From: an uncultured Gammaproteobacteria bacterium
GTDB taxonomy: Bacteria; Patescibacteriota; Patescibacteriia; UBA9570
Assembly (NCBI GenBank): GCA_964385285.1
Contig: CAYLOJ010000007.1
Coordinates: forward strand, 1 to 61,462
Reading direction: 5' to 3'
DNA: 61,462 bases
Part shown: positions 8,070 to 38,464 of the stretch, piece after piece
How positions within the stretch are numbered: position 1 is the first letter of the stretch
How the letters are laid out: each line of letters starts with the position of its first letter
The notes under the pieces: generated by a model
Told to the model about the DNA's origin: nothing
What the model saw: the letters and a program-made list of their open reading frames with translations, nothing else
Databases searched by the model: none
Program-made: the position numbers and the translations under genes

Positions 8070-9431
8070 ATGTTGCAGTTCTATAACACATTGAGTCGAA
8101 CCATCGAGCCATTCACTCCCCTGCATGCTGGGAAGGTAGGTTTGTATACCTGTGGGCCAACCGTATATAACTATGCGCACATTGGAAATTTGCGCACTTA
8201 TATTTTCGAAGATATTTTGCGCCGAGTGTTACAAAACAATGGCTATGCTGTGAACCATGTCATGAACATCACTGATGTCGGCCATTTAACCGATGATGCC
8301 GACAGCGGTGAAGATAAGATGGAAAAAGGTGCCGCCCGTGAACAGAAATCCGTTTGGGATATTGCTGAATTCTATACTCAAGCGTTCAGACAAGATGCTA
8401 AAGATCTAAATTTATTGGATCCCAAAATCATCTGCAAAGCCACTGATCATATTCAAGAACAGATTGATCTTGTACTCAAACTCACTGAACGTGGTTTCAC
8501 CTATCAAACTAGTGACGGCATTTATTTTGATACCAGTAAGTTATCGGATTACGGTAAATTAGCCCGTTTGGATATTGCTGGATTATCTGCCGGTAATCGT
8601 GTCGAGATGGGTGATAAAAAACATCCAACCGATTTTGCCTTATGGAAGTTCAGCCCAGCAGATAGTAAACGCCAGATGGAATGGAACTCGCCGTGGGGCG
8701 TGGGTTTCCCTGGCTGGCATATTGAATGCTCGGCCATGAGTTTAAAATATCTCGGCGATCACTTCGATATCCATTGTGGCGGGATTGATCATATTCCTGT
8801 GCATCACACCAATGAGATTGCGCAGAATGAAGGAGCGCTCGGCCACAGTACGGTGAACTATTGGTTACATGGCGAATTCTTGCTAACGAACGATGAACGG
8901 ATGGGTAAATCCAAAGGGAATTTTTTGACGCTACAATTGTTAAAAGATAAAGGATACGATCCCCTCGCCTACCGCTATTTCTGTTTCTCGGCTCATTATC
9001 GTTCGAAATTGAATTTTAGTTTTGAAGCGTTAGATGGAGCGCAAACCACACTGCAGAATTTACGTCGCTTGATTCAAGGTTGGGATAAACCAACAGAGAT
9101 CGATACCGTGATGATGGAACAATTTACCGCTGCGGTTAATACGGATTTAGATATGCCGAAAGCGTTGGCAGTACTCTGGACAATGGTCCGCTCCAACATG
9201 GCTAGTGCCATTAAACATGCCACCGTGTTAGAGATGGATCTGGTGTTAGGATTGCAGTTGAATCAAGCCCCGGCTGAAATTCCACCCGAGGTGATGGAAC
9301 TAGTAATAGCGCGGGAAGGCGTCCGTCAGGCCAAACAATGGGCAGAATCGGATCGCTTACGTGATGAGATTAAACGTCAGGGATATATTGTCGAAGATAG
9401 TAAAACTGGTCCACGTGTGTATCCACTATGA
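8070..9431 (+). CDS. cysS: Cysteine--tRNA ligase
   Basis: Class I HIGN motif ([10 protein letters not shown]) and KMSKS-like KMGKSKGN. Confidence 0.9.
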
Positions 9432-10210
9432 GAGAGGTCCGAAAAATGCCTTACGAACCAAGTCGTACTAAACGGTTTGAGATTTCCGCAGACGCTATTT
9501 CACGTGAGCGACTTAAAACGCTACATGGAGCCTATCAAGATTGGAAGCAAAAATTACCAGAGGTTGGTATAGGATTTACGCTATACGGTTCACTCAGTAA
9601 AGGCAAAGTATTAGATGCCGAGTCTGCTAAACATAGTGATGTAGATGTGAGATTATTTATTGATCAGCAGGATATCGAACGATCACTTGCAACGTTACCC
9701 GAAGAGATTATGCAGCACTATTACGATATCGCCACTGCCGAAGCTAAAGTGCAGATGAATCCGGAAACAGCTTGGCGAGCAGTAGCCGACTTAATGCGTC
9801 GTGATATCACTCAGCGCTTTGCAGAACTTGCCACACCAACCGATTGCTCAGTGAGTGCTCAACCCATTGCGATGCATGGCGATCATTCCATTGCACAACA
9901 TATGGAACACTACCTCTACCCTGCTATCGATCAAGATCCATCCGACCCCAGTAACTTTGCAGATGGTTATACCATTGCCTCGTATTGGCATTTAGATGTT
10001 GGTGGTGGGATGCGGCCTTATCGTAAAGCATTTTTGGAAGAGCTGAAGCGGCACGAAACGCCTGAGGAGCAAGAACGTATTTGGTCGACGATTCATGATG
10101 CCATCATCAGTGTTGAACGCGCCGCAAATATTCCAGAACAGATCGCCAAACAATTTCCAGCAACCTTTGCGGATGCGTGCCAATATTATGGTGTCACCCC
10201 ATCTCTATGA
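9428..10210 (+). CDS. Hypothetical protein, possible nucleotidyltransferase fold
   Basis: YGSLSKGK...SDVDVRLF resembles the hG[GS]-x(n)-DhD NTase motif. ATGA overlap with the cysS stop. Confidence 0.4.
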
Positions 10211-11172
10211 AGAACCCTTGGTTAGATTTACCAAAACCGTTGATCTATTTAGCGCCAATGAGCGGGGTGACAAATTTGGCCTATCGCCAGATTGTAAAAT
10301 CATTCGCCTCGGATATTTTGTTTCCGGAATTTGTATCGATTGATGCCATGCACTATGGTTCCGACAAATCTGATCTACTACTGAAATATGAGGAATCAGA
10401 ACGCCCGATCATCGCTCAGTTGTTTGGTTCTGAACCCGAGCTGTTCCATGAAGCGGCTTTGAAAATTAAAGCCCAAGGCTTTGATGGTGTCGATATTAAC
10501 TTTGGATGTCCGGCTCCTAAAGTTGCCAAGAATGGCGGCGGCTGTGCCCTCTTAGGAGATCTCGGTCGTTGTCGGGCCATTATTGAGGCCGTCATCGCTG
10601 CGGTGGGTAACGATTTACCGGTGTCGGTCAAAACCCGCATTAGTTATAAGCAAGTCCATGTGCGCGATTTTTGTAAAACGATTGCTGACCTTCCCCTCTC
10701 TAACTTAACGGTCCACGGCCGTCCATTTGAGCGCCCGTATGAAGGGGCGGCAGATTTAGATTGCGTGAAAGAAGCCAAACAATCTGTTCCATTCTTAGTC
10801 TGTGCCTCCGGACACGGACACACCCCGGAAGCGGCTAAAGAAACGTTGGATTATACGGGTTGTGATGGTGTGGCTGTTGCCCGCGGTACTTTTGGCAAGC
10901 CCTGGTTAATTAAACAGATCAAAGAGTATTTAACGACTGGTAGTTACTGGCAGCCAAGCCAAGCCGAAATTTTGGATATCATGTTGCAGCATGCCCGGTT
11001 AACGACCAAATTAAACTCGGAGCGACCATTTGTAGAGATCCGTAAAGTGATGGGTTGGTATGTGCGCGCTATCCCGTATGCGGCTCAATACCGTGCTCGT
11101 TTAGTGCGCGTCAACAGTTTGGAAGATATTGAAGTCATTGTACAAGAAATAAAACAAGGCCTGCCGGCCTAG
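10207..11172 (+). CDS. dus: tRNA-dihydrouridine synthase
   Basis: LAPMSGVTN, DINFGCP and HGR motifs. Start placed at the ATG at 10207, giving an ATGA overlap with the previous stop. Confidence 0.85.
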   Translation: MKNPWLDLPKPLIYLAPMSGVTNLAYRQIVKSFASDILFPEFVSIDAMHYGSDKSDLLLKYEESERPIIAQLFGSEPELFHEAALKIKAQGFDGVDINFGCPAPKVAKNGGGCALLGDLGRCRAIIEAVIAAVGNDLPVSVKTRISYKQVHVRDFCKTIADLPLSNLTVHGRPFERPYEGAADLDCVKEAKQSVPFLVCASGHGHTPEAAKETLDYTGCDGVAVARGTFGKPWLIKQIKEYLTTGSYWQPSQAEILDIMLQHARLTTKLNSERPFVEIRKVMGWYVRAIPYAAQYRARLVRVNSLEDIEVIVQEIKQGLPA

Positions 11173-11187
11173 TGTTGGAGTTCAATT

Positions 11188-11246
11188 GTGGTGCGTACAG
11201 GCCGGGCGGGAATGTGATTCCCCGCGCCGGCTGTACGTTCCCCCTA
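11188..11246 (-). other. Cassette-B 3' module: UAGGGGGAA, long GC hairpin, CACCAC
   Basis: Minus strand GGGGGAA (11238-11245), hairpin CGUACAGCCGGCGCGGGG-AAUCACAUU-CCCGCCCGGCCUGUACG (11194-11237), CACCAC (11188-11193). Confidence 0.55.
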
Positions 11247-11249
11247 CTG

Positions 11250-11594
11250 CTACGGACAGAGCACGTCGGCGTAAAGGACTCCGCCCTTGGAGATGTCCTT
11301 TGAATTGATGATGTGCATCATCCGGCGCCCCTGGTAGGTCGTCCGAGCCGGCGCGATGCCACGGTTTTCGATCCACGCGAGCAAATCACCGCTGAAGTGC
11401 TCCATCACGCTGTCGGCGAAGGAGATGCGCGGGTAGATCGTGTAGCCGTTCGGCAACGCGATGGGATTGAACCCAGTACGTGGGTCACGCGTCCGAAGGT
11501 CACCCTCGTACGCGTCGGTCTCCTCGTACCAGGTGATGGTGGCGAACTTCTCCGCCAGGTAGACACCCACCTCGTCCAGTCGTCTCAATTGCAT
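11250..11594 (-). CDS. GC-rich cassette B: hypothetical 114-aa protein
   Basis: ORF track. High GC3. SD UAGGAG lies 7 nt upstream of the ATG. Confidence 0.7.
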   Translation of the reverse strand: MQLRRLDEVGVYLAEKFATITWYEETDAYEGDLRTRDPRTGFNPIALPNGYTIYPRISFADSVMEHFSGDLLAWIENRGIAPARTTYQGRRMMHIINSKDISKGGVLYADVLCP

Positions 11595-11639
11595 CGAGAA
11601 CTCCTATACATTAATGCTCTGCGAGACAGAGCCGGTGCA

Positions 11640-11671
11640 TTTAATCACAAAAAACGGATTTGTCAATCCGT
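11640..11671 (-). promoter_or_regulatory. Terminator hairpin with embedded promoter for cassette B
   Basis: Minus strand AACGGAUU-GACA-AAUCCGUU plus U6. TTGACA (11661-11666), 17-nt spacer, TAAAT (about 11640-11645). Confidence 0.5.
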
Positions 11672-11714
11672 TCCATTCGATTTGATATATAATTTGCAGT
11701 GTTCGGAGATGTGC

Positions 11715-11774
11715 GTGGTGCGTACGGGCCGGGCGGGAATGTGATTTCCCGCGCCGACCTCGTACCTTCCTCCT
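11715..11774 (-). other. Cassette-B2 3' module: GAGGAGGAA, long GC hairpin, CACCAC
   Basis: The hairpin at 11721-11765 is a sequence paralog of the 11194-11237 hairpin (same AAUCACAU loop) with altered stem bases. GGAGGAAG lies at 11766-11774 and CACCAC at 11715-11720. Confidence 0.55.
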
Positions 11775-11792
11775 CTGTCTGGTGCACTGGTA

Positions 11793-11954
11793 CTACACCA
11801 GCTTCCAGAACAGCCAGCCAAAGAACTTCCAGAACAGCCAGCCTTCACCGGCCAGGATCGCAAGGGATACGATACAGAACACCACGACCGAGATCGGGGT
11901 GCGCTGCTCGCCACTTTGGTCGTCGCCGGCGAAGCCATCCACGTCATTCTGCAT
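11793..11954 (-). CDS. GC-rich cassette B2: 53-aa single-TM micro-protein (MQNDVDGFAGDDQSGEQRTPISVVVFCIVSLAILAGEGWLFWKFFGWLFWKLV)
   Basis: Hand-translated; it is below the ORF-track size cutoff. SD CGGAGGG lies 4 nt before the ATG. High GC3 and one clear hydrophobic helix. Preferred over the 119-aa alternative frame 11663..12022, which runs into AT-rich promoter DNA. Confidence 0.5.
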   Translation of the reverse strand: MQNDVDGFAGDDQSGEQRTPISVVVFCIVSLAILAGEGWLFWKFFGWLFWKLV

Positions 11955-11980
11955 GTGCCCTCCGTGTAGTAGGCGCGAGC

Positions 11981-12015
11981 AGTAAACACAAAAAACTCGG
12001 ATTGGTCAATCCGGT
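11981..12015 (-). promoter_or_regulatory. Terminator hairpin with embedded promoter for cassette B2
   Basis: Minus strand CCGGAUU-GACC-AAUCCGAG plus U6. TTGACC (12004-12009), 17-nt spacer, TTTACT (11981-11986). Confidence 0.45.
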
Positions 12016-12025
12016 TGGTCATACG

Positions 12026-12093
12026 GGTGGTGATGGACTCTACGGGTCAGTGATGTGCGTTGCCGCGACAGCACTGACTCGTAGCTTCCCCCT
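12026..12093 (-). other. Cassette-C 3' module: UAGGGGGAA, 13-bp hairpin, UCACCACC
   Basis: GGGGGAAG at 12085-12093. CUACGAGUCAGUG...CACUGACCCGUAG stem at 12040-12084. CACCACC at 12026-12033. Confidence 0.55.
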
Positions 12094-12096
12094 AGC

Positions 12097-12402
12097 TCAG
12101 GTTGCGGGGTCTTCGAAGATCGTCATGATCTGCTTGCGGTTCCCGTCCAGCAGGGTGATGACGCGGCCGTCATTCACCTTGGTGGGGTGGGGCGTCAGGC
12201 CGATGGTGGCATGGACGAATCCAGCCAGCGTGTCGTGCCAGACCCGCTCCGACTCGATGACGAAGCGCCCAACCCGAACTGCCTTCGGGCCGAAGACGAC
12301 CTGGGTGGGACTACGTGACGTCACGAAGACCTTCGAGAAGTCGACCATGTTGAACGCCAGCGCCAGCGCCAGCTCGAGATCCTTCAGAGACAAAGTACGC
12401 AA
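12097..12402 (-). CDS. GC-rich cassette C: hypothetical 101-aa protein (TTG start)
   Basis: ORF track. High GC3. GGAG lies 7 nt upstream of the TTG. Confidence 0.6.
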   Translation of the reverse strand: MRTLSLKDLELALALAFNMVDFSKVFVTSRSPTQVVFGPKAVRVGRFVIESERVWHDTLAGFVHATIGLTPHPTKVNDGRVITLLDGNRKQIMTIFEDPAT

Positions 12403-12423
12403 AATAGCTCCGTGAGCCCCAGC

Positions 12424-12452
12424 AGGCTAATGGAGATTACTGTTTATGTCAA
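12424..12452 (-). promoter_or_regulatory. Sigma70-type promoter for cassette C
   Basis: TTGACA (12447-12452), 17 nt, TAGCCT (12424-12429), immediately after the stop of the upstream membrane-protein gene. Confidence 0.45.
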
Positions 12453-12460
12453 ACTAGACC

Positions 12461-13150
12461 CTATTCCCGATTGCGGCCGATCAAGATCATCGCCACAATG
12501 GGCGCAGCAATCCATCCAAAATTGGTCCACTCATTGGTGAACACATACTGTGTTAATGCGGAAAACTTATGAAGTACATTATCCGGCATGAAGGATAAAG
12601 TGACGGATACTAATAACCCAACATGCAACACACTAAACACCAAGGTTTGCCACCACTTCCCTTCTCCATTTGGAGCCAAGGCATTCAACACCGCTTGGCG
12701 TGACAATAAGAAAAATAAAATAATGAATACGGAGATAAAGGCAGTGATCTGTACAGTGTAACTATCGTTCACTTTGATGTTCAGCACAAACTCTGGCAAT
12801 GCCGCTACCACCGCCAACGCCATATAGATACTGACCATGATGGCGATGATACGATCCTTCCCTAAGGACAAACCATAGAGCAGAGCACCGACAACAAAGA
12901 AGCCCACTAAAAACAGATCCCATGATGGATTGCCCATGTTCAGGCTTTTAAGAGTTTGGTCGATATTCAACTGGCTAGTACTACTATTGGTATTACTCGC
13001 AGCTTCTTCAACTGCGGTAACGACTCCGGTTGATTCTGTGCTCGCCGTTACGGTACCAGAATCTGCATTCGTATTGGTATCCGAATTCGTATTACTATTC
13101 TCTGTATCCGAGACTACCGTTTTATTTTTTTGCTCAGTATTTTTTGGCAT
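12461..13150 (-). CDS. Multi-pass membrane protein with a low-complexity Thr/Ser/Asn N-terminus
   Basis: ORF track. Several hydrophobic helices. Confidence 0.65.
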   Translation of the reverse strand: MPKNTEQKNKTVVSDTENSNTNSDTNTNADSGTVTASTESTGVVTAVEEAASNTNSSTSQLNIDQTLKSLNMGNPSWDLFLVGFFVVGALLYGLSLGKDRIIAIMVSIYMALAVVAALPEFVLNIKVNDSYTVQITAFISVFIILFFLLSRQAVLNALAPNGEGKWWQTLVFSVLHVGLLVSVTLSFMPDNVLHKFSALTQYVFTNEWTNFGWIAAPIVAMILIGRNRE

Positions 13151-13211: not shown

Positions 13212-13595
13212 TTAGATCCAGGTAGTGAGTCCCCCAACTAAGATGTAACTAAACAAAATATAAACTACTAATATTGCCATTCCTGAAAATAATTTGCTCT
13301 CAATACCTATTAGACGTTTTTTTGAAAAACTCACTTGCTGCCCAATAAATACTCTACTACCCACCCATTCAGCTAATAATAATCCACCAATCACATAGAT
13401 CATTAGTAATCCATAAATAACCACAGACGTTAAATGATTATCCATGCTGGCAATTTTGTAAAAGCCAGCAATACTAATGATGAATGCGACTAGGAACTGA
13501 TACGAGCGCCGATAGGCTTGACTATACAACTCATATTCACGTTCGTCAGCTGGTTGATAACGCCTCCAATTTAGACGAGTATCGGATGATTTCAT
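13212..13595 (-). CDS. Small 3-TM membrane protein (paralog of 13810..14178)
   Basis: Start moved to MKSSDTRLNWRRYQPADERE. It shares the WxxYQPADEREx(2)L(F/Y)xQAYRRS motif with the paralog. Confidence 0.6.
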   Translation of the reverse strand: MKSSDTRLNWRRYQPADEREYELYSQAYRRSYQFLVAFIISIAGFYKIASMDNHLTSVVIYGLLMIYVIGGLLLAEWVGSRVFIGQQVSFSKKRLIGIESKLFSGMAILVVYILFSYILVGGLTTWI

Positions 13596-13602
13596 AATGC
13601 TA

Positions 13603-13806
13603 TTAGACTTTAAATTTAAATAAATCTTCAATACTAACTTTAAATAATCTTGCACATTGCCAAGCGAGATAAAGAGTAGGTTGATACTTTCCTTGCTCAA
13701 TAGCATTGATCGTTTGACGGGTGACACCCAGCTTATTGGCTAATTCTTCTTGAGTGTAGCCGGCTTTAGTGCGGTAATCTTTTAAATTACTATTAATAAT
13801 AGGCAT
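13603..13806 (-). CDS. XRE-family helix-turn-helix transcriptional regulator
   Basis: The 67-aa sequence [27 protein letters not shown] is a classic Cro/C1 HTH. Confidence 0.85.
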
Positions 13807-13809
13807 AAC

Positions 13810-14178
13810 TTAGGAGCAAAATACGCCACAATCAAAAATAGTCCCCCAAACAAATAGGATCCCTCCCAACACAATAACGATCGACACTAACAATAGAGCC
13901 ATGCTAATTAACTTAGTATAAAGATTGCGCTTAAAGGTGACTGGTTCACCTAAAAAGATAGTGGCACTGATCAGTGTAGAAACCACTCCCATTGTGAGAA
14001 TGGCTAAAATAATTTTGCCTGTAGTCATAATTTCACTGGGTTGAGTAATGAACAGGAAGTAGACTACGATTAATAATTGGAAAGCTAGCCAACTACGCCG
14101 ATAGGCTTGATAAAAAAGCTGTTGTTCCCGTTCATCGGCTGGTTGATAATGCCACCAAAGTAATTTTTTGATTTGCAT
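13810..14178 (-). CDS. Small 3-TM membrane protein (paralog of 13212..13595)
   Basis: ORF track. Shares the N-terminal motif with the paralog. Confidence 0.6.
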   Translation of the reverse strand: MQIKKLLWWHYQPADEREQQLFYQAYRRSWLAFQLLIVVYFLFITQPSEIMTTGKIILAILTMGVVSTLISATIFLGEPVTFKRNLYTKLISMALLLVSIVIVLGGILFVWGTIFDCGVFCS

Positions 14179-15213: not shown

Positions 15214-15591
15214 TCAGCCCTGAGGCTTGGTCTGCTCTCGCTCGTAGGCGTGAACACCGGCGTAATTGCTGGTACCCGGACCGTGGCTGAACGACACGAT
15301 CCGACCACGCGCGGTACCGTCACTGCCGAGGTGAACGTACGGGGTCAGCGTCACCACCAGCGTCTGCAGCCACCCGACCACCACGTGGTTGCGCTGGGCC
15401 AATCCGGAGTAGTCGTAGTGATCATCGAACACGATGACGTACGGCCCGATCTCCAGGTAGGGCTGCAGGACACCGGACAGATCGACGCGGACATTGATGC
15501 CGCCGGTCGACTTCGGGAAGTCCACACGGGTGAACAGCTCGGTCAGGAACGTTTCGACGCCATCCATCTTCAACAATTTCACATCCAACAT
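15214..15591 (-). CDS. GC-rich cassette D: hypothetical 125-aa protein
   Basis: ORF track. High GC3 after an AT-rich first ~10 codons. Confidence 0.65.
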   Translation of the reverse strand: MLDVKLLKMDGVETFLTELFTRVDFPKSTGGINVRVDLSGVLQPYLEIGPYVIVFDDHYDYSGLAQRNHVVVGWLQTLVVTLTPYVHLGSDGTARGRIVSFSHGPGTSNYAGVHAYEREQTKPQG

Positions 15592-25230: not shown

Positions 25231-26358
25231 TCAGCGGGTCAGGATCTTGGCCTGAACATCGCGATCAACGACGAACCCACGTTCGTCACCGTCGCAACCG
25301 ATGCCACCCCAACAGGCATACACCTGCTCGCGGAGCACCGCCAGACGGAACTCTTCGATCTTCTCGAAGTCCCACTCGATGTGGTAATCGTTGCCGACCT
25401 TGATCACCCGACCGAGCGGCGGATCCCATCGATCGACGCAGCCGACGATCCGCAACTCCTCCCCCACCTTGATGAGGGCGAATAGACGAAAGCCGGCCCG
25501 ACACCACTGCGTGCGGTTCGGCACGTGCCACTCCGGAGAGAGCCACGGGAGGACCTGTTCGATCCCCGCGTCCCCGACATCCTCGGACATTCCGAAATAC
25601 AGCGGGGTATGCTGGAAGCTCGCACAGAGCTCCGCGAGGTAGCCGTAGAAGCGGACGATGTCGTCACGCTCCAGCTCGTAGCTGGTCAGCTTCGGATCGC
25701 GCCGGAAATTGGCCAACGCGTTGAAGCGGCACACATCTACACCGTTGTTGAGGCAAAACTCAGCCATCTTCTGCAGGTTTTCACGCGTCAGGTTCCGCTT
25801 GTGGAACGTGAAGGTGAGAATGATCTGCAGTTGATGTCCGGTCCGTGCCCGCCAGGCGCAGATGTTCTCAACGGCCGTGCGAATGACACGACCCGGGGTG
25901 ACGCCACGGAACACGATCGGCGTGTCCGCGGCGTCGTGCGCCGTGATCGTGATCGCACGGTAGCCGAGCTGCCAGCCACGATCGAGACGATCCTCCCAGC
26001 CGGGCTGAGTGAGGATGCGACCCGCGGACCAGGCCGCAAAGCCGTTCTCCTCCACCCGGAAGGCGGAGCCACCCTCATCCGCCAGCAACGCTTCATCGGC
26101 GAAGCTATCGGCGAGGATGTACGAGATGTCGTACCCCTGCCGGTGCAGCGAGTGAACAATCTGCATCGCCTCTTTCCGCGGCACCTCGTACGGCGCCTCG
26201 TTGAAGAAGTAACAGTGCTCACAAGCGGCCTGACAGGTCTTCTTCCCCACCGTGTTCGCGGCGTGGAAGTAGATGGTGATGTCCTGCGGGCGCAACTGCC
26301 CGAACGGGACGTTAAAGTCGACCGGCGGGAAGCAGCGCAGAGTCTTTAGAGCCATCAT
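25231..26358 (-). CDS. GC-rich radical SAM enzyme (subfamily unassigned)
   Basis: CQAACEHCY is the CX3CX2C motif followed by an aromatic residue. About 63% GC in a hand-counted sample. SD CUGGAGG. Antisense and alternative-frame ORFs are judged spurious. Confidence 0.75.
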   Translation of the reverse strand: MMALKTLRCFPPVDFNVPFGQLRPQDITIYFHAANTVGKKTCQAACEHCYFFNEAPYEVPRKEAMQIVHSLHRQGYDISYILADSFADEALLADEGGSAFRVEENGFAAWSAGRILTQPGWEDRLDRGWQLGYRAITITAHDAADTPIVFRGVTPGRVIRTAVENICAWRARTGHQLQIILTFTFHKRNLTRENLQKMAEFCLNNGVDVCRFNALANFRRDPKLTSYELERDDIVRFYGYLAELCASFQHTPLYFGMSEDVGDAGIEQVLPWLSPEWHVPNRTQWCRAGFRLFALIKVGEELRIVGCVDRWDPPLGRVIKVGNDYHIEWDFEKIEEFRLAVLREQVYACWGGIGCDGDERGFVVDRDVQAKILTR

Positions 26359-26802: not shown

Positions 26803-27042
26803 TCAGCAGGGATCGCGGAACTGCGTCCGTTCCACCGCGGGATAAGCCGCGATGTCCTGGTCGTAGTTCTGCATGAGGCGGAGAGCCAGGCCGCGAGCGT
26901 TCTGCTCGAGCCTGGCCAACCGCTTCGCCTTGCTGGTAGCCTTGATCTGCCGAAGCAGCTCAAGGTATTCACGCCACAGATCCGCAGGCGGCGGGGGCGG
27001 GGGCGGGGGCTTCCAACTCGCTACTGGACCGGTGCTAGGCAT
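26803..27042 (-). CDS. GC-rich 79-aa protein with a Pro8 tract and helical C-terminus
   Basis: ORF track. Strong SD AGGAGGAACCG before the ATG. Followed by a GCCCCGA/UCGGGGC hairpin. Confidence 0.55.
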   Translation of the reverse strand: MPSTGPVASWKPPPPPPPPADLWREYLELLRQIKATSKAKRLARLEQNARGLALRLMQNYDQDIAAYPAVERTQFRDPC

Positions 27043-27235: not shown

Positions 27236-27347
27236 GCAGACTTCGTATCACCTACTAAAGACTCACATCAACTGCGCTGATTGTCCTGCGGGAGGGATTC
27301 CACTCTCCCCCAGAACCTGTCACGCGTAGTGACTGGAGGACGAGACA

Positions 27348-27539
27348 ATGTCTACGTATTACGGACAACTGATGGAAGCAGAGTTGGCGGTGCGTGGCCT
27401 GGGCCCTGATGGCAAGCCACTGCAGGGTGACCCAGACATGCATGGCGGCCACCCGGACGCAAGCCCGGACCCCGTGAAGCCGGCGGAAGGCTCGCCTCTG
27501 CCGGCGACGAACGAAGAAGAGGGCTACCACATGCCGTAG
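27348..27539 (+). CDS. GC-rich 63-aa acidic Pro/Gly-rich protein
   Basis: ORF track. SD UGGAGGA lies 7 nt upstream of the ATG. Preferred over the two antisense ORFs. Confidence 0.5.
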   Translation: MSTYYGQLMEAELAVRGLGPDGKPLQGDPDMHGGHPDASPDPVKPAEGSPLPATNEEEGYHMP

Positions 27540-32354: not shown

Positions 32355-32993
32355 CTACTGAGCGCTCATCATCCGGATGTACGCCACCTGCGCACCTTCG
32401 GCCGTCGGGTCAAAGGAGTAGGTGGCGGCGGTCGGAGCAACACTGCGCGTGGCAGAGATGCTCTTGGTTCGCATCGTGGACGAAGAAGCCGAGACGAGCT
32501 GGACGTGGTTGCGTCCCAACTGCTGCGACTCCCGCGCGACGATGTAGTTGAGCGCGAGGGTGTCGAGCGGAGTCCGGGAGTAGACCAGGTAGAGGTCCTC
32601 CTGGCCAAAGGGCGGGTTGATCTGCAGCGGGGAAGCTTCGGTACCGAACGGCACGGTACCTCCAGCGATAACGTAGTTGGACTCTCCGTCGTATGGAAAG
32701 ACCAGTGCCACGTTTGAAGCAGAGTCAACGTTGACGAGGTACACGTACCCCGTCTGCTGGATGGTCGCCACCATCCAGAGCTTCTCACCGTTGTGGAAGA
32801 TCCGCTCCGGATCCACAGCGCCGGACATCGTCTGGTAAGTGACAGTGGCAAGGTTGGTGGGTGCCTGGATCACACCGAGGCACTTCGCGCCGGGCGGACA
32901 CGCGTAAGCGGGCGTGACTGTGACAAGGGCGAGGAAGAAGACGACAAGGAGCAACCACTGGGGCAGTGTCTTGAAGTCATTGAAGGTAGACAT
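32355..32993 (-). CDS. GC-rich secreted protein, DUF4384-like
   Basis: Signal peptide ...LLLVVFFLALVTVTPAYA. GYVYLVNVDSASNVALVFPYDG resembles the DUF4384 core. Start set at the ATG at 32993; the track TTG is at 33011. Confidence 0.6.
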   Translation of the reverse strand: MSTFNDFKTLPQWLLLVVFFLALVTVTPAYACPPGAKCLGVIQAPTNLATVTYQTMSGAVDPERIFHNGEKLWMVATIQQTGYVYLVNVDSASNVALVFPYDGESNYVIAGGTVPFGTEASPLQINPPFGQEDLYLVYSRTPLDTLALNYIVARESQQLGRNHVQLVSASSSTMRTKSISATRSVAPTAATYSFDPTAEGAQVAYIRMMSAQ

Positions 32994-33040
32994 GGAATCT
33001 CGATTTGCCAACGCGCGTTGATGGCATCTAGGGTAGGGGT

Positions 33041-33206: not shown

Positions 33207-33235
33207 ATGGTACCATGATTTTTCCACTTTGTCAA
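33207..33235 (-). promoter_or_regulatory. Sigma70-type promoter P_H
   Basis: TTGACA (33230-33235), 17 nt, TACCAT (33207-33212). Confidence 0.5.
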
Positions 33236-33255
33236 TGGCTAAGATAAACTAGTTT

Positions 33256-33320
33256 GTAGACTACTGTCTTCAGAATTTGAACCCTATTGTGCAGGCGTTG
33301 CGGCAGTGGCAACAAGTTTT
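33256..33320 (-). repeat. R repeat copy R1 (resembles a tRNA 3' half)
   Basis: Minus strand AAAACUUGUUGCCACUGCCGCAACGCCUGCACAAUAGGGUUCAAAUUCUGAAGACAGUAGUCUAC, followed by the palindrome AAACTAGTTT and the promoter. Confidence 0.7.
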
Positions 33321-33365
33321 AACTTCTTTAAGCTTACCCTTTAGTACTTTTCGTTATATGAATAT

Positions 33366-33863
33366 TCAGTATGTTAGGGCTTCAACAAGGGCCTTGCAAA
33401 AACGCTCTTGCCGCAACACAACACCCTTAGTATTGTGCCATGAACCGTCTCCAGGAATATATAACACGTGTTGACCATGCGCATCCCGATAGATCAGCTT
33501 TACTGCAACAGCGCTGCCATACGCAGTGATGATATGTTGAACGCTAGCAGAGACCACATCTGATTTATTGATACTAATGTTATCCATCGGCTGAAGAGCT
33601 GTGAACGTATAAACGCCCTTCATACAGGTAATACGTATATACCAGGGTGCAATAATTTTACGTCTAGTCGCGTACACAAAAAAAATGCCTAGCACAAACA
33701 TAACACCAACCCCTAACACACTGAGGGGCTCATCGCTACTAACAGGAATTTCTCCCTGAGCCCACAGCCAAATAAAACTACCAAATAATAGACTCATGAT
33801 AACAGGAAAAAATAAAATAATGCCTAGCCGGTCACGAGTTGAATGTCTCCTTTCAAATTGCAT
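33366..33863 (-). CDS. Hypothetical membrane protein (2 N-terminal TM helices)
   Basis: ORF track. Host-like GC. The ATG lies 9 nt after R2 with no promoter in between. Confidence 0.6.
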   Translation of the reverse strand: MQFERRHSTRDRLGIILFFPVIMSLLFGSFIWLWAQGEIPVSSDEPLSVLGVGVMFVLGIFFVYATRRKIIAPWYIRITCMKGVYTFTALQPMDNISINKSDVVSASVQHIITAYGSAVAVKLIYRDAHGQHVLYIPGDGSWHNTKGVVLRQERFCKALVEALTY

Positions 33864-33871
33864 ATAGTAAT

Positions 33872-33936
33872 GTAGATTCCTGTCTTCAGAATTTAAACCC
33901 TATTGTACAGGCATTGCGGCAGTGGCAGCAAGTTTT
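33872..33936 (-). repeat. R repeat copy R2
   Basis: About 85% identical to R1. Lies between hammerhead 1 and the 33863 ORF. Confidence 0.7.
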
Positions 33937-33950
33937 AGCCGGTTCAATTA

Positions 33951-34016
33951 TCCCCTTTCGTCCTTAATCTTGCGATCTAGACTCGTCAGTTTAGGCATTA
34001 CCTAAAGAGGGTGATG
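33951..34016 (-). ncRNA. Type III hammerhead ribozyme, copy 1
   Basis: Minus strand CCCUC^UUUAGG-UAAUG-CCUAAA-CUGACGA-GUCUAGAUC-GCAA-GAUUAAGGAC-GAAA-GGGG. All core nucleotides are present (CUGANGA, G10.1-C11.1, GAAA, A15.1-U16.1, C17). Stems I and II are loop-closed and stem III is open. Predicted cleavage between 34007 and 34006. Confidence 0.8.
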
Positions 34017-34101
34017 AGTGGGGCCTTGGGTTGCAGGAGACGTTGGAACGTTCGCCGCAACACACGTAGGTCCCACCCGCCCTCATACACCATCTGTCCT
34101 C
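34017..34101 (-). other. Conserved structured domain between the cassette-I stop and hammerhead 1
   Basis: Homologous to 36536-36610. Helix GUGGGACC/GGCCCCAC and inner ACGU-UCCA-ACGU hairpin. Confidence 0.5.
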
Positions 34102-34482
34102 TTACTGGCAGCTCACCTCCCAGCCACCGAACGGCTCAGCGGCTCCGATGATGAATGACGGTTCGGCCTCTGGTGCCTGCGGGCATTGCACCCGCCACTC
34201 GTCCGCGAGCGCCTTGGCCCGCTTGATACTGAGCGGCGGGTCCTGGAACGCCTCTTCACTCATCTGGGTGCCGAGTGAAGTGACATGACAGCGCTTGTCA
34301 CTGTGCTGCTTCCAGAACGCGCAGGCAGACCCCAGGTCGTACTTGACGGCCTTTCCATCAGGGCCGAGAGTCGACGAATTCTTCTGATAGAGTACGAATC
34401 CGCGGACTGCGTTATCGGCAGGCATAGCAGCCATGATGCTGAGAACGATGAGAAGAGTGAAGGCAGTCTTGAAAGTTCGCAT
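34102..34482 (-). CDS. GC-rich secreted 126-aa Cys-containing protein (cassette I)
   Basis: ORF track. N-terminal signal-like helix MRTFKTAFTLLIVLSIMAAMPA. Confidence 0.6.
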   Translation of the reverse strand: MRTFKTAFTLLIVLSIMAAMPADNAVRGFVLYQKNSSTLGPDGKAVKYDLGSACAFWKQHSDKRCHVTSLGTQMSEEAFQDPPLSIKRAKALADEWRVQCPQAPEAEPSFIIGAAEPFGGWEVSCQ

Positions 34483-34513
34483 GGGCGCCTTATCCAGGTG
34501 GTGAGAGATACCG

Positions 34514-34564
34514 TTCCACCTGCTTACAGCTGACTTCTAAAAAATCAGATCTAAGCAAGTGGAA
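34514..34564 (-). promoter_or_regulatory. Conserved 13-bp leader hairpin followed by CUCACCACCUGG, upstream of cassette I
   Basis: UUCCACUUGCUUA...UAAGCAGGUGGAA. Homologous to 37137-37186. Confidence 0.45.
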
Positions 34565-34591
34565 CGAGTAATGTATGAGGGTTGTAAAGAA

Positions 34592-34774
34592 CAAAAAACA
34601 GGCGGTTAGCCTGCGTTGTGGAATAGAGAATGAATGGTTGTTTGGCTCGTACGATTACCTCGTACAGTGTCACATTACCATAGGGAACGTGACCAAACCC
34701 ACTTCATAACTTTTCCATTCAGTTATGCTAGTAGTTACTTGAAGGTGCATGTTTTGAGGCATGTCCTCAAAAAC
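34592..34774 (-). ncRNA. Y-family structured leader/sRNA, copy Y2
   Basis: Promoter TTGACA (34804-34809), 17 nt, TATAGT (34781-34786). Four hairpins. Terminator CAGGC-UAACC-GCCUG plus U6 at about 34593-34613. Confidence 0.55.
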
Positions 34775-34817
34775 AGTGGCACTATACTCATGCATATGAG
34801 TTATGTCAAGAATTGCT

Positions 34818-34883
34818 GTAAACCACTGTATTCAGAATTTGAACCCCATTGTACAGGCGTTGCGGCAGTGGCAACAGGTTTTA
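34818..34883 (-). repeat. R repeat copy R3
   Basis: Lies directly upstream of the Y2 promoter. A 12-nt R-end fragment (AGAGUCUACAUA) also overlaps the stop codon at about 34929-34940. Confidence 0.7.
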
Positions 34884-34939
34884 CGGCCTGTATTGGCTTG
34901 ATTTAATAGCCACAGCATTTTTGGAGAATTATGTAGACT

Positions 34940-36250
34940 CTATGACTGCATTGGATACTTAGCCATGAACGCTTCTAACTCGGCAGATAATTTAGCTTGT
35001 TCGGCCTGTAAACGTGTGTGTTCAGCCTGAGCTTGATCTAGCTCGTCGCCATATTGGTTTAAGTGGGGATCAATTGCTTTTTGAAAATCTGCATGTCTAG
35101 CCGCTTGATCGTGTGCCTGGTACTGGCCACGTGGCAAGTTATGTTGCCAAATGTTTTTCTCTACCCGCGATACTTGAAACCAACCAATGGCAGCACCTGC
35201 CGCTGCCCCTAACGCAGCCATTGGAATGTTTGGTTCACCAGTCTGCCCCACGTTGTACATGACACCCGCCATGCCCATAATGCCAGCAGTACCTAAAGTG
35301 ATATGCGCTACCTTTAACATTTCCCAAATTTGATGAGCAGTTACCCGTAATTGAATAGAGGCATCTCTTGCATCATAGGCATGTTGGCGAGCTGCTAAAT
35401 ACTGCTCAGCATCTTCTGCATCTACCGCTAATTCAAAATATTGTGCCAGCAATTCATTCAAGCGTTGGCCAGCCGTACGTATCTGTTCAATTAAGTTGGT
35501 CACTGCTGGTTCGGGTTCGTTGACTGCAGGTTGGCGCGGATCTTTGAATTTCACGTTACCATCACTCCCCAACCGATCAATTTCTAACTCTATCTCATGA
35601 ATTTCTTCTCGCAAAGATCGTAACTCTTCAGTCAGAGTAGTAATTTGTAGATTGCGATTTTCTGGAGTACCAGCGCGTTGTTCCGCCCGGCGTTGTTTGG
35701 CAGCTCGATAGCGTTCTAATTCTGGGTACTGAGCAAACCAACGCTCAGAATAATCGTGAGATTCCTCCATACGCGACAAACCAAATTCCACCGCTGAACC
35801 AGCCATGGCCCCACCAGCTGTGGCCAACGCTGTCATGGCAGGATCCTTAGTGAGCATATACGCTCCAGCACCAACACCAGTGCCTATAATTGAACTAGAA
35901 GTAACGTAACGTGTTACTGCCCAAGCCAGTTTAGCTGCTTTAGCTTTTATCTCGGCAAAACGTTGAGAATTTTGATTAAGTTGTTCAAGTGCTTGAATAC
36001 TGCGTTCTGCTCCTTCCTGAGCTTGCAACAATTTATAGTAGTGACTTAAGGCACTATCAAATTTTCGACCTGATTCTGCTAAATAGTCCAAATAGGCCTT
36101 TAAGGTTTCTGGAGTGGCTTCACCTTGGAATTCTAAAAGATTTTTAGCATGCTCTTCAGGTTGATGGTTAGGCAACGCAACCTTTGGTTCCAAATGGACT
36201 ATCGGTTCCGGTGGACGACGAAAGGGTTGACGAGTACGTTCAATACTCAT
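34940..36250 (-). CDS. Hypothetical coiled-coil protein with two glycine-zipper membrane segments
   Basis: ORF track. GTGVGAGAY...GGAMAGSAV and GTAGIMGMAGV...LGAAAGAAIGW. Confidence 0.6.
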   Translation of the reverse strand: MSIERTRQPFRRPPEPIVHLEPKVALPNHQPEEHAKNLLEFQGEATPETLKAYLDYLAESGRKFDSALSHYYKLLQAQEGAERSIQALEQLNQNSQRFAEIKAKAAKLAWAVTRYVTSSSIIGTGVGAGAYMLTKDPAMTALATAGGAMAGSAVEFGLSRMEESHDYSERWFAQYPELERYRAAKQRRAEQRAGTPENRNLQITTLTEELRSLREEIHEIELEIDRLGSDGNVKFKDPRQPAVNEPEPAVTNLIEQIRTAGQRLNELLAQYFELAVDAEDAEQYLAARQHAYDARDASIQLRVTAHQIWEMLKVAHITLGTAGIMGMAGVMYNVGQTGEPNIPMAALGAAAGAAIGWFQVSRVEKNIWQHNLPRGQYQAHDQAARHADFQKAIDPHLNQYGDELDQAQAEHTRLQAEQAKLSAELEAFMAKYPMQS

Positions 36251-36251
36251 A

Positions 36252-36416
36252 TTAGGATTGTGTGGATCTTAGTTGAGCTTGGATATCATCAGAAAAAGAT
36301 TCGATGTCCTGGTTCAGTTGTTGAAAGGCTAATTTCACTTCTGCAGGAGAAGCTTTACCCTGAGCGATTTTCTCGCACAAGTCATCAAAGTTTAATGGAG
36401 TATTATCATTCGCCAT
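36252..36416 (-). CDS. 54-aa hypothetical protein, translationally coupled to the 36250 ORF
   Basis: Hand-translated MANDNTPLNFDDLCEKIAQGKASPAEVKLAFQQLNQDIESFSDDIQAQLRSTQS. Its TAA stop lies 1 nt before the next ATG. Confidence 0.45.
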   Translation of the reverse strand: MANDNTPLNFDDLCEKIAQGKASPAEVKLAFQQLNQDIESFSDDIQAQLRSTQS

Positions 36417-36431
36417 AAATAGATATAGACA

Positions 36432-36459
36432 ATTTTAGCAGATTTTAGGAAAAAATCAA
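36432..36459 (-). promoter_or_regulatory. Candidate promoter for the 36416 operon
   Basis: TTGATT, 16 nt, TAAAAT, immediately downstream of hammerhead 2. Confidence 0.4.
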
Positions 36460-36470
36460 GCGCAAATGAT

Positions 36471-36535
36471 TCCCTTTCGTCCTTGATCTTGCGATCTAGA
36501 CTCGTCAGTTTAGGCATTACCTAAAGAGGGTGATT
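36471..36535 (-). ncRNA. Type III hammerhead ribozyme, copy 2
   Basis: Same core as copy 1. The single stem II difference (GAUUAAGGAC to GAUCAAGGAC) converts a G-U pair to G-C. Predicted cleavage between 36526 and 36525. Confidence 0.8.
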
Positions 36536-36610
36536 GAGTGAAACCTTGGGTTGAAGCTGACGTTGGAACGTCACCAGCAACACACTTAGGTTCCACTCGC
36601 CCCTCATACA
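36536..36610 (-). other. Conserved structured domain between the cassette-J stop and hammerhead 2
   Basis: GUGGAACC/GGUUUCAC replaces GUGGGACC/GGCCCCAC of copy 1 (compensatory). GCUG/CAGC replaces GCGG/CCUGC. Confidence 0.5.
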
Positions 36611-37108
36611 CTAGTACCGCATGCACACCTGCGCCGTCAGCTCTTCACAGTTCGCAACGTGTGAATCTGGAGTACTCGCGAGACACTGTTCGTACAGGTA
36701 TCGAGTAGCGACGGGGGTGCACAGAGTGGTTGGATCGAACTGTTCGTAGTCCGACCACGGAGCCATGATCGGCCACTCATCCCACTTCGTTGGCATTCGA
36801 CCCAACTGCAGCGCGCGCCAGTTGCAGTTCGACTCGAGTGCGAGAAGTTTGATACTGGCACCCTGGGTATTCATCAGAATGACCTGCATCTGCTCCTCGT
36901 CACACAAAGGCGGCGGGTGCAATGTAGCGTCCATTTCCGTGAGCATGTACCGGAAGAGATCGGACATCGCCCGCTCTCTATCAAGTGACAACTCGAGCTT
37001 GTGAATCTTCTTGGCCTGCTCGATGAGCGCGTCCTGCTTTCGATGAGCGCACCCGCTGCTCAGGAGGATGATGAGGAGGACGACGATGGTCTTCAGCTGT
37101 GTGTACAT
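36611..37108 (-). CDS. GC-rich lipoprotein, 165 aa (cassette J)
   Basis: Lipobox LLSSGC. Seven further Cys. SD GGGAGAG. Confidence 0.65.
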   Translation of the reverse strand: MYTQLKTIVVLLIILLSSGCAHRKQDALIEQAKKIHKLELSLDRERAMSDLFRYMLTEMDATLHPPPLCDEEQMQVILMNTQGASIKLLALESNCNWRALQLGRMPTKWDEWPIMAPWSDYEQFDPTTLCTPVATRYLYEQCLASTPDSHVANCEELTAQVCMRY

Positions 37109-37136
37109 TTGTCTCTCCCAGGTGGTGAGATTAGGG

Positions 37137-37186
37137 TTCCACCTGCTTACAACTGACTTCGTAAAATCAGCTCAAAGCAGATGGAA
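37137..37186 (-). promoter_or_regulatory. Conserved leader hairpin followed by CUCACCACCUGG, upstream of cassette J
   Basis: Homolog of 34514-34564. The downstream UCUCACC...GGGAGAGA could sequester the SD. Confidence 0.45.
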
Positions 37187-37212
37187 CAGATAGTGTATGA
37201 AGGTTGTAAAGA

Positions 37213-37401
37213 ACAAAACAGCAGGTGTTTCACCTGCTTTCACATTACGATTGATTGTACTCATCTAGACCTCTTTACAGGCAACGCGATTAACTCGCGC
37301 GGTACTACGCCACCATAGGGGGTGTAGTCGAACCCACTTGAACCTGTGTTCAAGTTGTTTCTAGAAAGTGCATGTTTTTACAGATGTGTATTCTGTAAAA
37401 A
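37213..37401 (-). ncRNA. Y-family structured leader/sRNA, copy Y3
   Basis: Promoter TTGACA (37431-37436), 17 nt, TACCAT (37408-37413). Terminator GCAGGUG-AAA-CACCUGC plus U-run at about 37214-37237. Confidence 0.55.
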
Positions 37402-37460
37402 CGCGCCATGGTACACCAAAATACATGTTTTGTCAAGACCTAATAGACACTGCTTTGTAT

Positions 37461-37525
37461 GTAGACTCTGTCTTCAGAATTTGAACCCTATGGTACAGAC
37501 GTTGAGGAAATGGCGGCAGGTATTA
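37461..37525 (-). repeat. R repeat copy R4 (most diverged)
   Basis: ...ACGUCUGUACCAUAGGGUUCAAAUUCUGAAGACAGAGUCUAC, upstream of the Y3 promoter. Confidence 0.6.
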
Positions 37526-37573
37526 GTATTCACTAGCTCTATTCACCTCTATTGAGATGAACACAGTATGCGT

Positions 37574-37602
37574 GAGAAGGGGGTAGCTCTTCTCGTCCTC
37601 CA
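37574..37602 (-). other. Cassette-L 3' module: UGGAGGA plus hairpin
   Basis: GGAGGA at 37596-37602. GAGAAG/CUUCUC stem at 37574-37594. Preceded by the CGCACAU/AUGUGCG hairpin. Confidence 0.45.
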
Positions 37603-37660
37603 ATGTGATTTGCGCACATCTACCCCTGGATCATGGAATGATCAATGTGCGACTAGATCT

Positions 37661-38203
37661 CTACTTCCGCCGGCGGAATCCAAACAGCGGGAAGAGCAGC
37701 GTTGCTGCGAAAGTAATACCTTGATTACATCCTCCGCACTCGACAGAATCCTTGTCGTCTCCCGTATCGCTCTCCCCAGAATCGATCTCGACCGACTGGG
37801 TGTAGAGGTTCACGCTGGTGCCGTCGACGAAAACCGCGAGGGTCGAATCCCGGTTTCCCTCCAACCAGGCCTCGTAGAGGCTCTCGGGGATGTACGCCGT
37901 GAACTCGTCACCGGTCAGGTCATAGTCGAAGTCCTCCCGCCCGTTGGGGAAGAGATCCGACTCACTGGCCCACGTGGACAGCCATTCGTAGTTGCAGACC
38001 TCATCGCCGTCGTCGAGCAGGAAGTTGTACACGACCTGGATTGAGTCGTAGCCGCTTGGGCTCTCGACGCCCGGGGTGAACGAGTTGGCATCGACCACGA
38101 TGGCGGTCGCCGACTCGCAGAATGCGTCGTTTGAGCCGTCGGCTCCCATGGTGTAGTCAGCGTCATCGGCGAGTGCTGCCGACAGGAACAATGAAAACAA
38201 CAT
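37661..38203 (-). CDS. GC-rich secreted acidic protein with a MYXO-CTERM/GlyGly-CTERM-like sorting tail (cassette L)
   Basis: Start moved to the ATG at 38203 (MLFSLFLSAALA signal peptide, SD UAGGAGAG). C-terminus ECGGCNQG-ITFAATLLFPLFGF-RRRK. Confidence 0.6.
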   Translation of the reverse strand: MLFSLFLSAALADDADYTMGADGSNDAFCESATAIVVDANSFTPGVESPSGYDSIQVVYNFLLDDGDEVCNYEWLSTWASESDLFPNGREDFDYDLTGDEFTAYIPESLYEAWLEGNRDSTLAVFVDGTSVNLYTQSVEIDSGESDTGDDKDSVECGGCNQGITFAATLLFPLFGFRRRK

Positions 38204-38460: not shown

Positions 38461-38464
38461 CAAC

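Follow-up and report, generated by a model that had tools for sequence, protein, structure and literature searches.

A probable chromosomal hotspot of moron-like accessory-gene cassettes in a Kerfeldbacteria-like bacterium

The stretch of DNA analysed here, referred to as the window, comprises 61,462 nt of contig CAYLOJ010000007.1 (assembly GCA_964385285.1) and contains a 1.29-kb insert on the minus strand (11173-12460) with three small genes in tandem, C, B2 and B. With a probability of roughly 0.55, the insert is best explained as a variable accessory-gene hotspot, in which three autonomous, moron-like chromosomal cassettes of a Kerfeldbacteria-like bacterium are shuffled by recombination at shared flanks. 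Phage morons, a concept of Hendrix and Juhala, are defined as extra DNA relative to related genomes, with their own promoter and terminator and a deviating GC content; they are single extra genes between genes that are adjacent in relatives, and their cargo is often unknown or accessory (PMC3594210). The trio can be read as chromosomal moron-like cassettes because three of four moron features were found, namely extra genes between two genes that are adjacent in five relatives, sequence signals for own promoters and terminators, and a GC content at third codon positions (GC3) of 0.81-0.83 compared to 0.31-0.50 in the host genes. The fourth feature, residence in a phage or prophage, was not found, as the window carries ordinary chromosomal genes (DnaX, CorA, CysS, Dus, HrcA-GrpE-DnaK-DnaJ, GAPDH, and an ilv/leu operon) and gave no PHROG matches. 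Unlike phage morons, the trio forms a tandem array among housekeeping genes, with at least nine further units in the 61 kb, and it carries a class-specific 3' module, i.e., a Shine-Dalgarno (SD)-like G-run followed by a long stem-loop. Moreover, its deviating GC content has been maintained over long divergence and is not a fading mark of transfer.

The insert extends from the stop codon of Dus (11170-11172) to the stop codon of a gene for a 229-aa membrane protein (12461-12463). These two genes are convergent, and the trio occupies the gap between them, as a sequence-only reading of the window had described. In five relatives (L001, L002, L003, L012, and L013), the same two genes are convergent neighbours with a spacer of just 40-135 nt, and the site is empty. 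Scanning metagenomes with Dus contributed just two additional short relatives, each with an empty site. The sequence-only reading had proposed a synteny check; five genomes have the empty site, and the trio proteins are absent from most relatives. The GC content of the insert is 0.57-0.67, versus approximately 0.45 in the flanks and approximately 45% in the 61-kb window overall. Both junctions of the insert are spanned by independent Logan contigs from two sequencing runs (X1 and X2), and therefore the insert is not an assembly chimera.

The Dus end of the insert shows a further peculiarity. The C-terminus of Dus (QGLPA*, 11147-11172) is unlike that of all relatives, and a terminator scan placed a terminator-like hairpin, AGGCCGGCAGGCCT followed by TGTTTTATTT, on the minus strand at 11147-11170, within the last Dus codons. 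Because the Dus end differs from its relatives and carries this hairpin on the opposite strand, the insertion seems to have remodelled the C-terminus of Dus. The hairpin and T-run opposite the last Dus codons would end the transcript of unit B. The 40-nt spacer of the empty site (L003, 4211-4250; L012) holds AACGGATTGAC, an 11-mer equal to the 5' half of the promoter hairpin of unit B; this match could be chance or a relic.

The three genes are encoded on the minus strand in the order C, B2, B. Open reading frame (ORF) C (12402-12097) encodes a soluble protein of 101 aa and has a GC3 of 0.83. ORF B2 (11954-11793; SD GGAGG at 11963-11959; GC3 0.81) encodes a protein of 53 aa, and ORF B (11594-11250; SD AGGAG at 11605-11601; GC3 0.82) encodes an ORFan of 114 aa. 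The B2 protein has an acidic N-terminus with a net charge of -4 in its first 20 residues, one strongly hydrophobic segment (peak Kyte-Doolittle value of 2.26 over 19 aa), and an aromatic C-terminus. In their own frames, the three ORFs have GC contents of approximately 0.55-0.60, 0.37-0.44, and 0.82 at the first, second, and third codon positions, a signature that the long antisense ORFs lack. Because of this codon-position signature, the ORFs are regarded as real genes that were shaped under a high-GC bias. The ORFs are located where the sequence-only reading had placed them and have a frame-specific coding signal; one correction concerns C, which starts with TTG.

It might be argued that these are no real genes at all, as GC-rich non-coding DNA yields long chance ORFs on both strands, B is without any homologue, and an assembly chimera could imitate an insert. 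Several observations speak against this idea. The codon-position GC content is strongly frame-specific, the counterparts of C and B2 at this site show a ratio of nonsynonymous to synonymous substitutions (dN/dS) below 1, and independent assemblies of several studies confirm the junctions. A 238-aa ORF on the plus strand over C and B2 was rejected as a gene; it is without the coding signature and is not conserved in the relative L016. A chance origin or a chimera is barely credible for the insert as a whole, and for C and B2 it is already refuted.

A variable segment of 527 bp (11188-11714, minus strand), which is present in some populations and absent from others, contains unit B, its promoter, and one 3' module copy. 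The full array including unit B was found in runs X1 and X2, which belong to one wastewater study. In contigs from other studies, X3 (activated sludge) and X5 (bioreactor), the Dus end and GTGTTGGAGTTCAATT directly precede the B2-type hairpin at 11715. The joint in the X5 contig leads from 11187 to 11715 and skips 527 bases. It falls in GTGGTGCGTAC, a stretch of identity that corresponds to the hairpin base GTACGCACCAC when read on the minus strand. The presence or absence of B is hence precise to the unit, and the joint falls within the 3' module, which agrees with the earlier description of B as a separate unit: B is gained or lost as a discrete segment bounded by the repeated module. The joint is explained by one crossover between both module copies, either as a deletion or as a Campbell-type insertion of a circle. 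The joint itself fits homologous and site-specific recombination alike. Other runs that cover 1-20 kb and 24-40 kb revealed no further cassette-level joints at low coverage.

The 3' modules have a common layout. A purine run (GGGGGAA or GGAGGAA) lies 4-17 nt after the ORF and is followed by an imperfect GC-rich stem-loop of 42-45 nt and a C-rich tail (CACCAC or CCATCACCACCC). All three modules of the trio are on the minus strand. The module of C (12025-12092) consists of GGGGGAA (12092-12086), the stem-loop CTACGAG...CCCGTAG (12084-12040), and the tail CCATCACCACCC (12036-12025). The module of B2 (11696-11773) has GGAGGAA at 11773-11767, a stem-loop GTACGAGG...CCCGTAC at 11765-11722 with the loop ATCACA, the tail CACCAC at 11720-11715, and a homologous extension to 11696. 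The module of B (11173-11244) has GGGGGAA at 11244-11238, a stem-loop CGTACAG...CTGTACG at 11237-11194 with the same loop, the tail CACCAC at 11193-11188, and an extension up to the Dus stop. The modules of B and B2 form a direct repeat, D5, in which 40 of 42 nt are identical (copy 1, 11188-11229; copy 2, 11715-11756); none is expected by chance, and the similarity extends over approximately 75 nt. A C>T change in the 3' arm at 11199 is compensated in the 5' arm, which converts GTACG/CGTAC to GTACAG/CTGTAC. The two hairpins are hence paralogous, as the sequence-only reading had proposed, and its further suggestion that the 3' module was duplicated independently of the ORFs is also upheld, as the flanks of B and B2 are alike and their ORFs are unrelated. 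This kinship is limited to B and B2, since the module of C shares only the outer boxes with them (GGRGGAAS-STACRAG ... CYYGTAS ... CACCAC), and its centre varies.

Predicted folding energies of the modules are -33.8 kcal/mol (z = -4.0) for C, -35.0 kcal/mol (z = -4.1) for B2, and -35.9 kcal/mol (z = -4.6) for B relative to shuffled controls, and the z-scores of the 3' modules overall range from -2 to -6. Across 16 modules, which are not independent of each other, the sense strand has a mean of -30.2 kcal/mol versus -26.3 kcal/mol for the antisense strand, a modest gap, and 29 versus 16 G.U pairs. Because the sense strand folds better and with more G.U pairs, a role in the sense RNA is suggested. 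As a rule, the predicted folds have the G-run paired with the C-rich tail. The stem-loops are followed by CACCAC or similar tails and have no U-tract, and for this reason the T-run hairpin that comes next is considered to be the canonical terminator.

Promoter-like and terminator-like signals separate the units. A promoter-like site for unit C (12424-12452, minus strand), with consensus-level evidence, directly follows the stop codon of the neighbouring gene and comprises a -35 box TTGACA (12452-12447), a spacer of 17 nt, and TAGCCT (12429-12424). Element 1, between C and B2 (11981-12014, minus strand), is a hairpin CCGGATT-GACC-AATCCG (12014-11998) followed by AG, a T6 run (11995-11990), and GTG; its -35 box TTGACC (12009-12004) is separated by 17 nt from the -10 box TTTACT (11986-11981). 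Element 2, between B2 and B (11639-11674, minus strand), is a hairpin AACGGATT-GACA-AATCCGTT (11672-11653) with a T6 run (11654-11649) and GTG, a -35 box TTGACA (11666-11661), a spacer of 16 nt, and the -10 box TTAAAT (11644-11639). Both -35 boxes are located in the loop or 3' arm of the terminator hairpins. The scan called both elements as terminators (element 2 with 10 pairs and a T-run), and these two and the Dus-end hairpin have the GC-rich stem and U-tract of canonical intrinsic terminators. The sequence-only reading had described a terminator hairpin of one unit with the -35 box of the next in its loop, and both elements are present in this form; the three genes look like separately punctuated units, in line with that reading. 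The exact 16-mer motif of the elements occurs at two sites only in the window; TTGAC(A/C) with a T-rich spacer occurs at eight sites, all on the minus strand, including those of the GC-rich units A (2318) and D (15669). The leaders of five units can be aligned over TTGAC, the T-run, the -10 box, and an ACAC(R)GAGG ribosome site. On the plus strand, no promoter-like site was found within 11173-12460.

These signals suggest how a cassette may be organised. Each unit would start with a promoter of the sigma-70 type. Its -35 box (TTGACA/C) would be placed within the intrinsic terminator of the preceding unit, either in the loop or in the 3' arm, and the T-run of this terminator would double as the spacer of the promoter. 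Next would come a short leader with an SD at its end and a small ORF kept at a GC3 of approximately 0.8 (compared to approximately 0.43 in ordinary genes). A long, imperfect, GC-rich stem-loop would then be closed at its base by the SD-like G-run and the C-rich tail; this stem-loop may serve as a barrier or stabiliser at the 3' end of the sense RNA, with the next T-run hairpin as the real terminator. Because the flanks of neighbouring units are alike while their ORFs are unrelated, the flanks would serve as portable homology, and recombination between shared promoter hairpins and 3' modules would add or remove whole units. We infer that this recombination is homologous rather than site-specific. 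C and B2 would represent an older, fast-evolving resident pair, a soluble protein of approximately 100 aa and a single-pass membrane micro-protein, and B would be a recent add-on or loss.

Units of this kind are not restricted to the insert. Twelve ORFs in the contig have a GC3 of 0.71-0.90 versus 0.31-0.50 in 47 host genes, without overlap. The codon adaptation index relative to the host genes separates the same groups (0.53-0.61 in the 12 units versus 0.63-0.77 in the host genes, again without overlap), and 8 of the 12 units, compared to 1 of the 47 host genes, carry an SD-like G-run no more than 40 nt downstream of the stop codon (Fisher p = 2e-6). The nine members outside the trio, with a GC3 of 0.71-0.90, are located at 1844-2242, 15214-15591, 25231-26358, 26805-27042, 27333-27539 (plus strand), 32355-33011, 34102-34482, 36611-37108, and 37661-38314. 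They are mostly ORFans and mostly have a TTGACA-type promoter and a long 3' stem-loop, which often follows an SD-like G-run. The predicted products of the class include small cytosolic proteins, a membrane peptide, secreted and lipoprotein-like proteins, and a 375-aa CxxxCxxC protein. Units G and H repeat the pattern of B and B2, with 5' and 3' flanks that are 81-96% identical and unrelated ORFs, and the tail of unit D, CCATCACCAACCC, is identical to that of unit C at 13 of 14 positions. Eleven of the 12 units are encoded on the strand that GC skew marks as G-rich. The 375-aa protein (25231-26358) carries CxxxCxxC (CQAACEHC) as in radical S-adenosylmethionine enzymes and has no Pfam, NCBIfam, or PADLOC match.

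Searches for relatives of the encoded proteins returned little. The proteins B, B2, C, D, A, and E had no matches in Pfam, PHROGs, PADLOC, or NCBIfam, and a sequence search of the PDB with B and the C family was equally negative. The same applies to tblastn searches of phages (queries B and C) and plasmids (query B), and to scans of IMG/VR with the proteins and both DNA motifs. B and C are not on record in an exact-protein look-up, and a word-index search of 5.8 billion proteins gave no homologue of B. Rfam gave no hit on the region at E<=1, and at the gathering threshold only a tRNA (39794-39865) was reported. The sequence-only reading had recommended HHpred or structure prediction for B and C. 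The family and PDB searches gave no match, and single-sequence AlphaFold2 models reached a predicted local distance difference test (pLDDT) score of 36 for B, which is unusable, and 42 for C. That reading would have been abandoned if the proteins belonged to ordinary housekeeping families present in all relatives. Instead, no family was matched, and most relatives lack the proteins.

An exhaustive HMMER search with C (1.8 billion representatives) identified only two true homologues, P0004 and P0009, with 35-38% identity over the full length. Matches of C to giant cadherin/Ig-repeat proteins in the same search were discarded as summed weak repeat matches. C is the founder of a small lineage-specific family that includes C, P0004, P0009, and a distant paralogue, D (15214-15591), which is collinear with C (hhalign E = 0.003) and shares the C-terminal PGTS; B as a possible further member of this family gave an hhalign E value of 0.27. 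P0004 and P0009 are encoded at the same site, between Dus and the 229-aa gene, in two other populations, one represented by L011 and the other by L016, L017, and L018, which are the same. Their layout comprises a TTGACG promoter, C', AGGAGGAG and a stem-loop, a terminator hairpin, a 51-aa membrane peptide, GGGGGAGG and a stem-loop, and then Dus. The peptide, the positional counterpart of B2, is called as a gene in L016. The C' promoter of L016 and L011 (TTGACG, 17 nt, TAAGCT, and 22 nt to the start codon) has the geometry seen in the window. Their terminator hairpin, CAGG-TTGACAG-CCTGG with T6, is orthologous to that of the window; the stems differ (GGATT/AATCC in the window, CAGG/CCTG in L016), and TTGAC in the loop and the 17-nt spacer are kept. 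The arrangement with a -35 box in the hairpin loop is thus found at the orthologous position with a different stem and the same geometry, which extends what had been noticed in the window.

The counterparts also reveal how the pair has evolved. Between the window and the other populations, the flanking proteins are 79-87% identical, compared to approximately 36% for C and approximately 20% for B2 in global alignments. Between L011 and L016, dN/dS is 0.51 for C' and 0.33 for B2' versus 0.03-0.05 for the flanking genes, and the pair is therefore considered to be real and fast-evolving. Both C' and B2' are under purifying selection. The stem-loop of C' differs between L011 and L016 by 1 change in 45 nt, versus approximately 14 in 48 nt in the spacer behind it. 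GC3 is 0.73-0.83 in all three lineages, although synonymous divergence (dS) of C between the window and L016 is approximately 1.

A plain recent transfer from one or more high-GC donors, with hairpins that are the U-tract-less terminators of these donors, would account for part of this picture. A GC3 of 0.8 combined with a GC content of 0.4 at second positions is the signature of a high-GC mutational bias, most relatives have an empty site, the units are poorly adapted to the codon usage of the host, and high-GC Actinobacteria often use stem-loops without a U-tract. Such an origin is nevertheless unlikely, since no homologue was found outside the lineage (neither for C among the 1.8 billion representatives nor for B in the 5.8-billion word index), and C-B2 occupies the same site with homologous AT-rich leaders in three far-diverged lineages, in which GC3 has not decayed. 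In addition, every unit has a host-style AT-rich promoter and SD, and a donor terminator leaves the SD-like G-run unaccounted for.

A second alternative is an integron-like or other site-specific cassette system, in which the 3' stem-loops act as single-strand recombination sites that are attC-like in organisation and unrelated in sequence, and an unlinked recombinase builds the array and scatters single cassettes through the genome. Integron cassettes, including the integrase-less arrays known as CALIN (clusters of attC sites lacking integron-integrases), are likewise tandem, co-oriented small ORFans that each end in an imperfect hairpin conserved in structure and not in sequence. AttC sites are imperfect hairpins with extrahelical bases and a variable central part. 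Single-base bulges and a variable centre occur in the 3' hairpins of the trio and are frequent in RNA stem-loops as well; the hairpins of the array have just their outer boxes in common. The precise gain or loss of unit B with a joint at the 3' base of a hairpin and the strand bias of the 12 units fit this model as well. However, RYYYAAC/GTTRRRY core sites, the R''/R' consensus of integrons, are missing, the hairpins being flanked by GGRGGAAS/STAC... and ...GTAS/CACCAC, and no tyrosine or serine recombinase, integrase, or transposase was found in approximately 50 ORFs scanned across the 61 kb. Integron cassettes are as a rule promoterless and expressed from Pc, whereas each unit here has its own promoter, with AT-rich control regions of approximately 100 nt between units. 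The G.U bias favours structure in the sense RNA, C-B2 and its non-coding leader look vertically inherited at one site in three lineages, and a 42-nt repeat at 95% identity is sufficient for ordinary homologous recombination. Because core sites and an integrase were not found and the cassettes have promoters, this alternative is weakened and appears rather improbable, but it is retained because gain and loss of units at hairpins is what such a system would produce. A bolder version, also improbable and somewhat more so, is that the 3' modules are the recombination sites of an undescribed cassette system with promoter-bearing cassettes, an unlinked recombinase, and a GC-rich cassette pool. If this were true, arrays would be built and single cassettes scattered in the genomes of the lineage, and the persistent GC3 gap would be its footprint.

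The small membrane protein B2 raises the question of whether the trio could be a type I toxin-antitoxin (TA) or toxin/immunity module, with B2 as a membrane-damaging peptide that is checked by an RNA or by C, and hairpins that control its translation. B2 and its positional counterparts (51-53 aa) have one strongly hydrophobic segment and are subject to purifying selection; with 53 aa and a Kyte-Doolittle value of 2.26, B2 conforms to the description of type I toxins as small hydrophobic membrane peptides. C and B2 occur together in three lineages, the use of rare codons would hold expression low, and the proteins evolve fast, as is seen in conflict genes. Yet no antisense promoter was found in the region, and PADLOC returned neither a defence-system model nor a TA family match for the trio. 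The 3' architecture is not toxin-specific because unrelated GC-rich genes for secreted proteins, lipoproteins, and the 375-aa enzyme-like protein have it as well. A toxin module is for these reasons a distant prospect. As for the function of the proteins, a low-confidence guess is a conflict or immunity system in which a peptide acts on membranes and has a cytosolic partner.

Parts of the moron-like cassette model have parallels in other known systems. Susskind and Botstein, and later Clark et al. (2001), reportedly proposed that conserved "boundary" or linker sequences drive mosaic gene exchange in lambdoid phages. Like these boundaries, the flanks of the trio are short conserved sequences around unrelated genes that would allow whole-gene swaps by homologous recombination; unlike them, they look functional (terminator/promoter hairpin and 3' stem-loop) and are located in a bacterial chromosome. 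The U-tract-less, or "I-shaped", terminators of mycobacteria and the 3' retroregulator of Bacillus thuringiensis cry, a stabilising 3' hairpin, are comparable to the 3' modules in that a long GC-rich stem-loop without a U-tract, stable in the sense strand, follows soon after the stop codon. In contrast to these, the stem-loop of the trio comes after an SD-like G-run that pairs with a C-rich tail, is succeeded by a second, canonical terminator, and is confined to one compositional class of genes. Palindromes of the repetitive extragenic palindromic (REP) or bacterial interspersed mosaic element (BIME) type were considered for the hairpins and rejected, as there are just two copies of the B/B2 hairpin and the hairpins of the other units are unrelated in sequence.

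Several points weigh against interpreting the trio as moron-like cassettes that are exchanged by homologous recombination. Morons are defined in phage genomes, and the trio resides in a housekeeping chromosomal context. High GC3 is kept in orthologues at a dS of approximately 1, which the simple idea of foreign DNA behind morons does not explain. The joint of unit B lies at the hairpin base (GTACGCACCAC), where a site-specific mechanism would also cut, and homologous recombination is assumed. The promoters, the terminators, and the RNA role of the 3' module are deduced from sequence, and the strand difference in folding energy is small, as stated above. Finally, the model offers no explanation for the function of the SD-like G-run. 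This G-run, at the foot of the 3' stem-loops, and the sustained difference in GC3 are the two puzzles of the region.

If the moron-like cassette model is correct, the chromosome of this lineage keeps a distinct caste of small, self-contained promoter-gene-hairpin accessory modules, which are stably separate in composition and swapped whole between natural populations. This would extend the idea of morons from phages to bacterial chromosomes, in groups that are poorly known. Combining a terminator with the following promoter in a single hairpin would be a compact natural design, and a question beyond amelioration theory would arise, namely what keeps a fifth of the genes at a GC3 of approximately 0.8 versus approximately 0.43 for the genome. 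Fast-evolving proteins without known relatives are candidates for conflict or host-interaction functions.

The host itself deserves comment. The nearest public relatives of the window are metagenome-assembled genomes labelled Candidatus Kerfeldbacteria, and two are labelled "Gammaproteobacteria"; because of these differing labels, the taxonomic label is uncertain. Kerfeldbacteria are a group of the candidate phyla radiation, which are usually poor in biosynthesis. A full branched-chain amino-acid (ilv/leu) biosynthesis cluster and GAPDH are located at 41407-55841.

Two further ideas were examined and discarded. CTAG as a flanking target repeat was rejected, as there are 126 CTAG sites in the window and stop codons are involved in those at the flanks, and a diversity-generating retroelement was rejected, as the window has no pair of template and variable repeats.

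Some further features of the window were noted. A 260-aa ORF (9428-10210) between CysS and Dus, overlapping both, is present in L016 and absent from L011; it has only weak nucleotidyltransferase-like matches (Polbeta and the cyclase of the cyclic oligonucleotide-based antiphage signalling system, CBASS). Two adjacent membrane-protein genes at 13212-14178 share a 63-nt repeat with 79% identity, and a helix-turn-helix gene lies between them. Compared to L011, the window has approximately 3.6 kb of extra DNA (13.9-17.4 kb), which includes unit D and a second DUF3592 gene. At 33228-38580, an element of 59-94 nt occurs five times just upstream of -35 boxes of minus-strand genes; each copy contains the inverted repeat GTTGC-N7-GCAAC, and the element may be a shared operator. 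A direct repeat of 216 nt with 96% identity is found at 38302-38517 and 39423-39638, and a gene with MopE-type metal-binding repeats (38733-39266) has length variants in several other runs.

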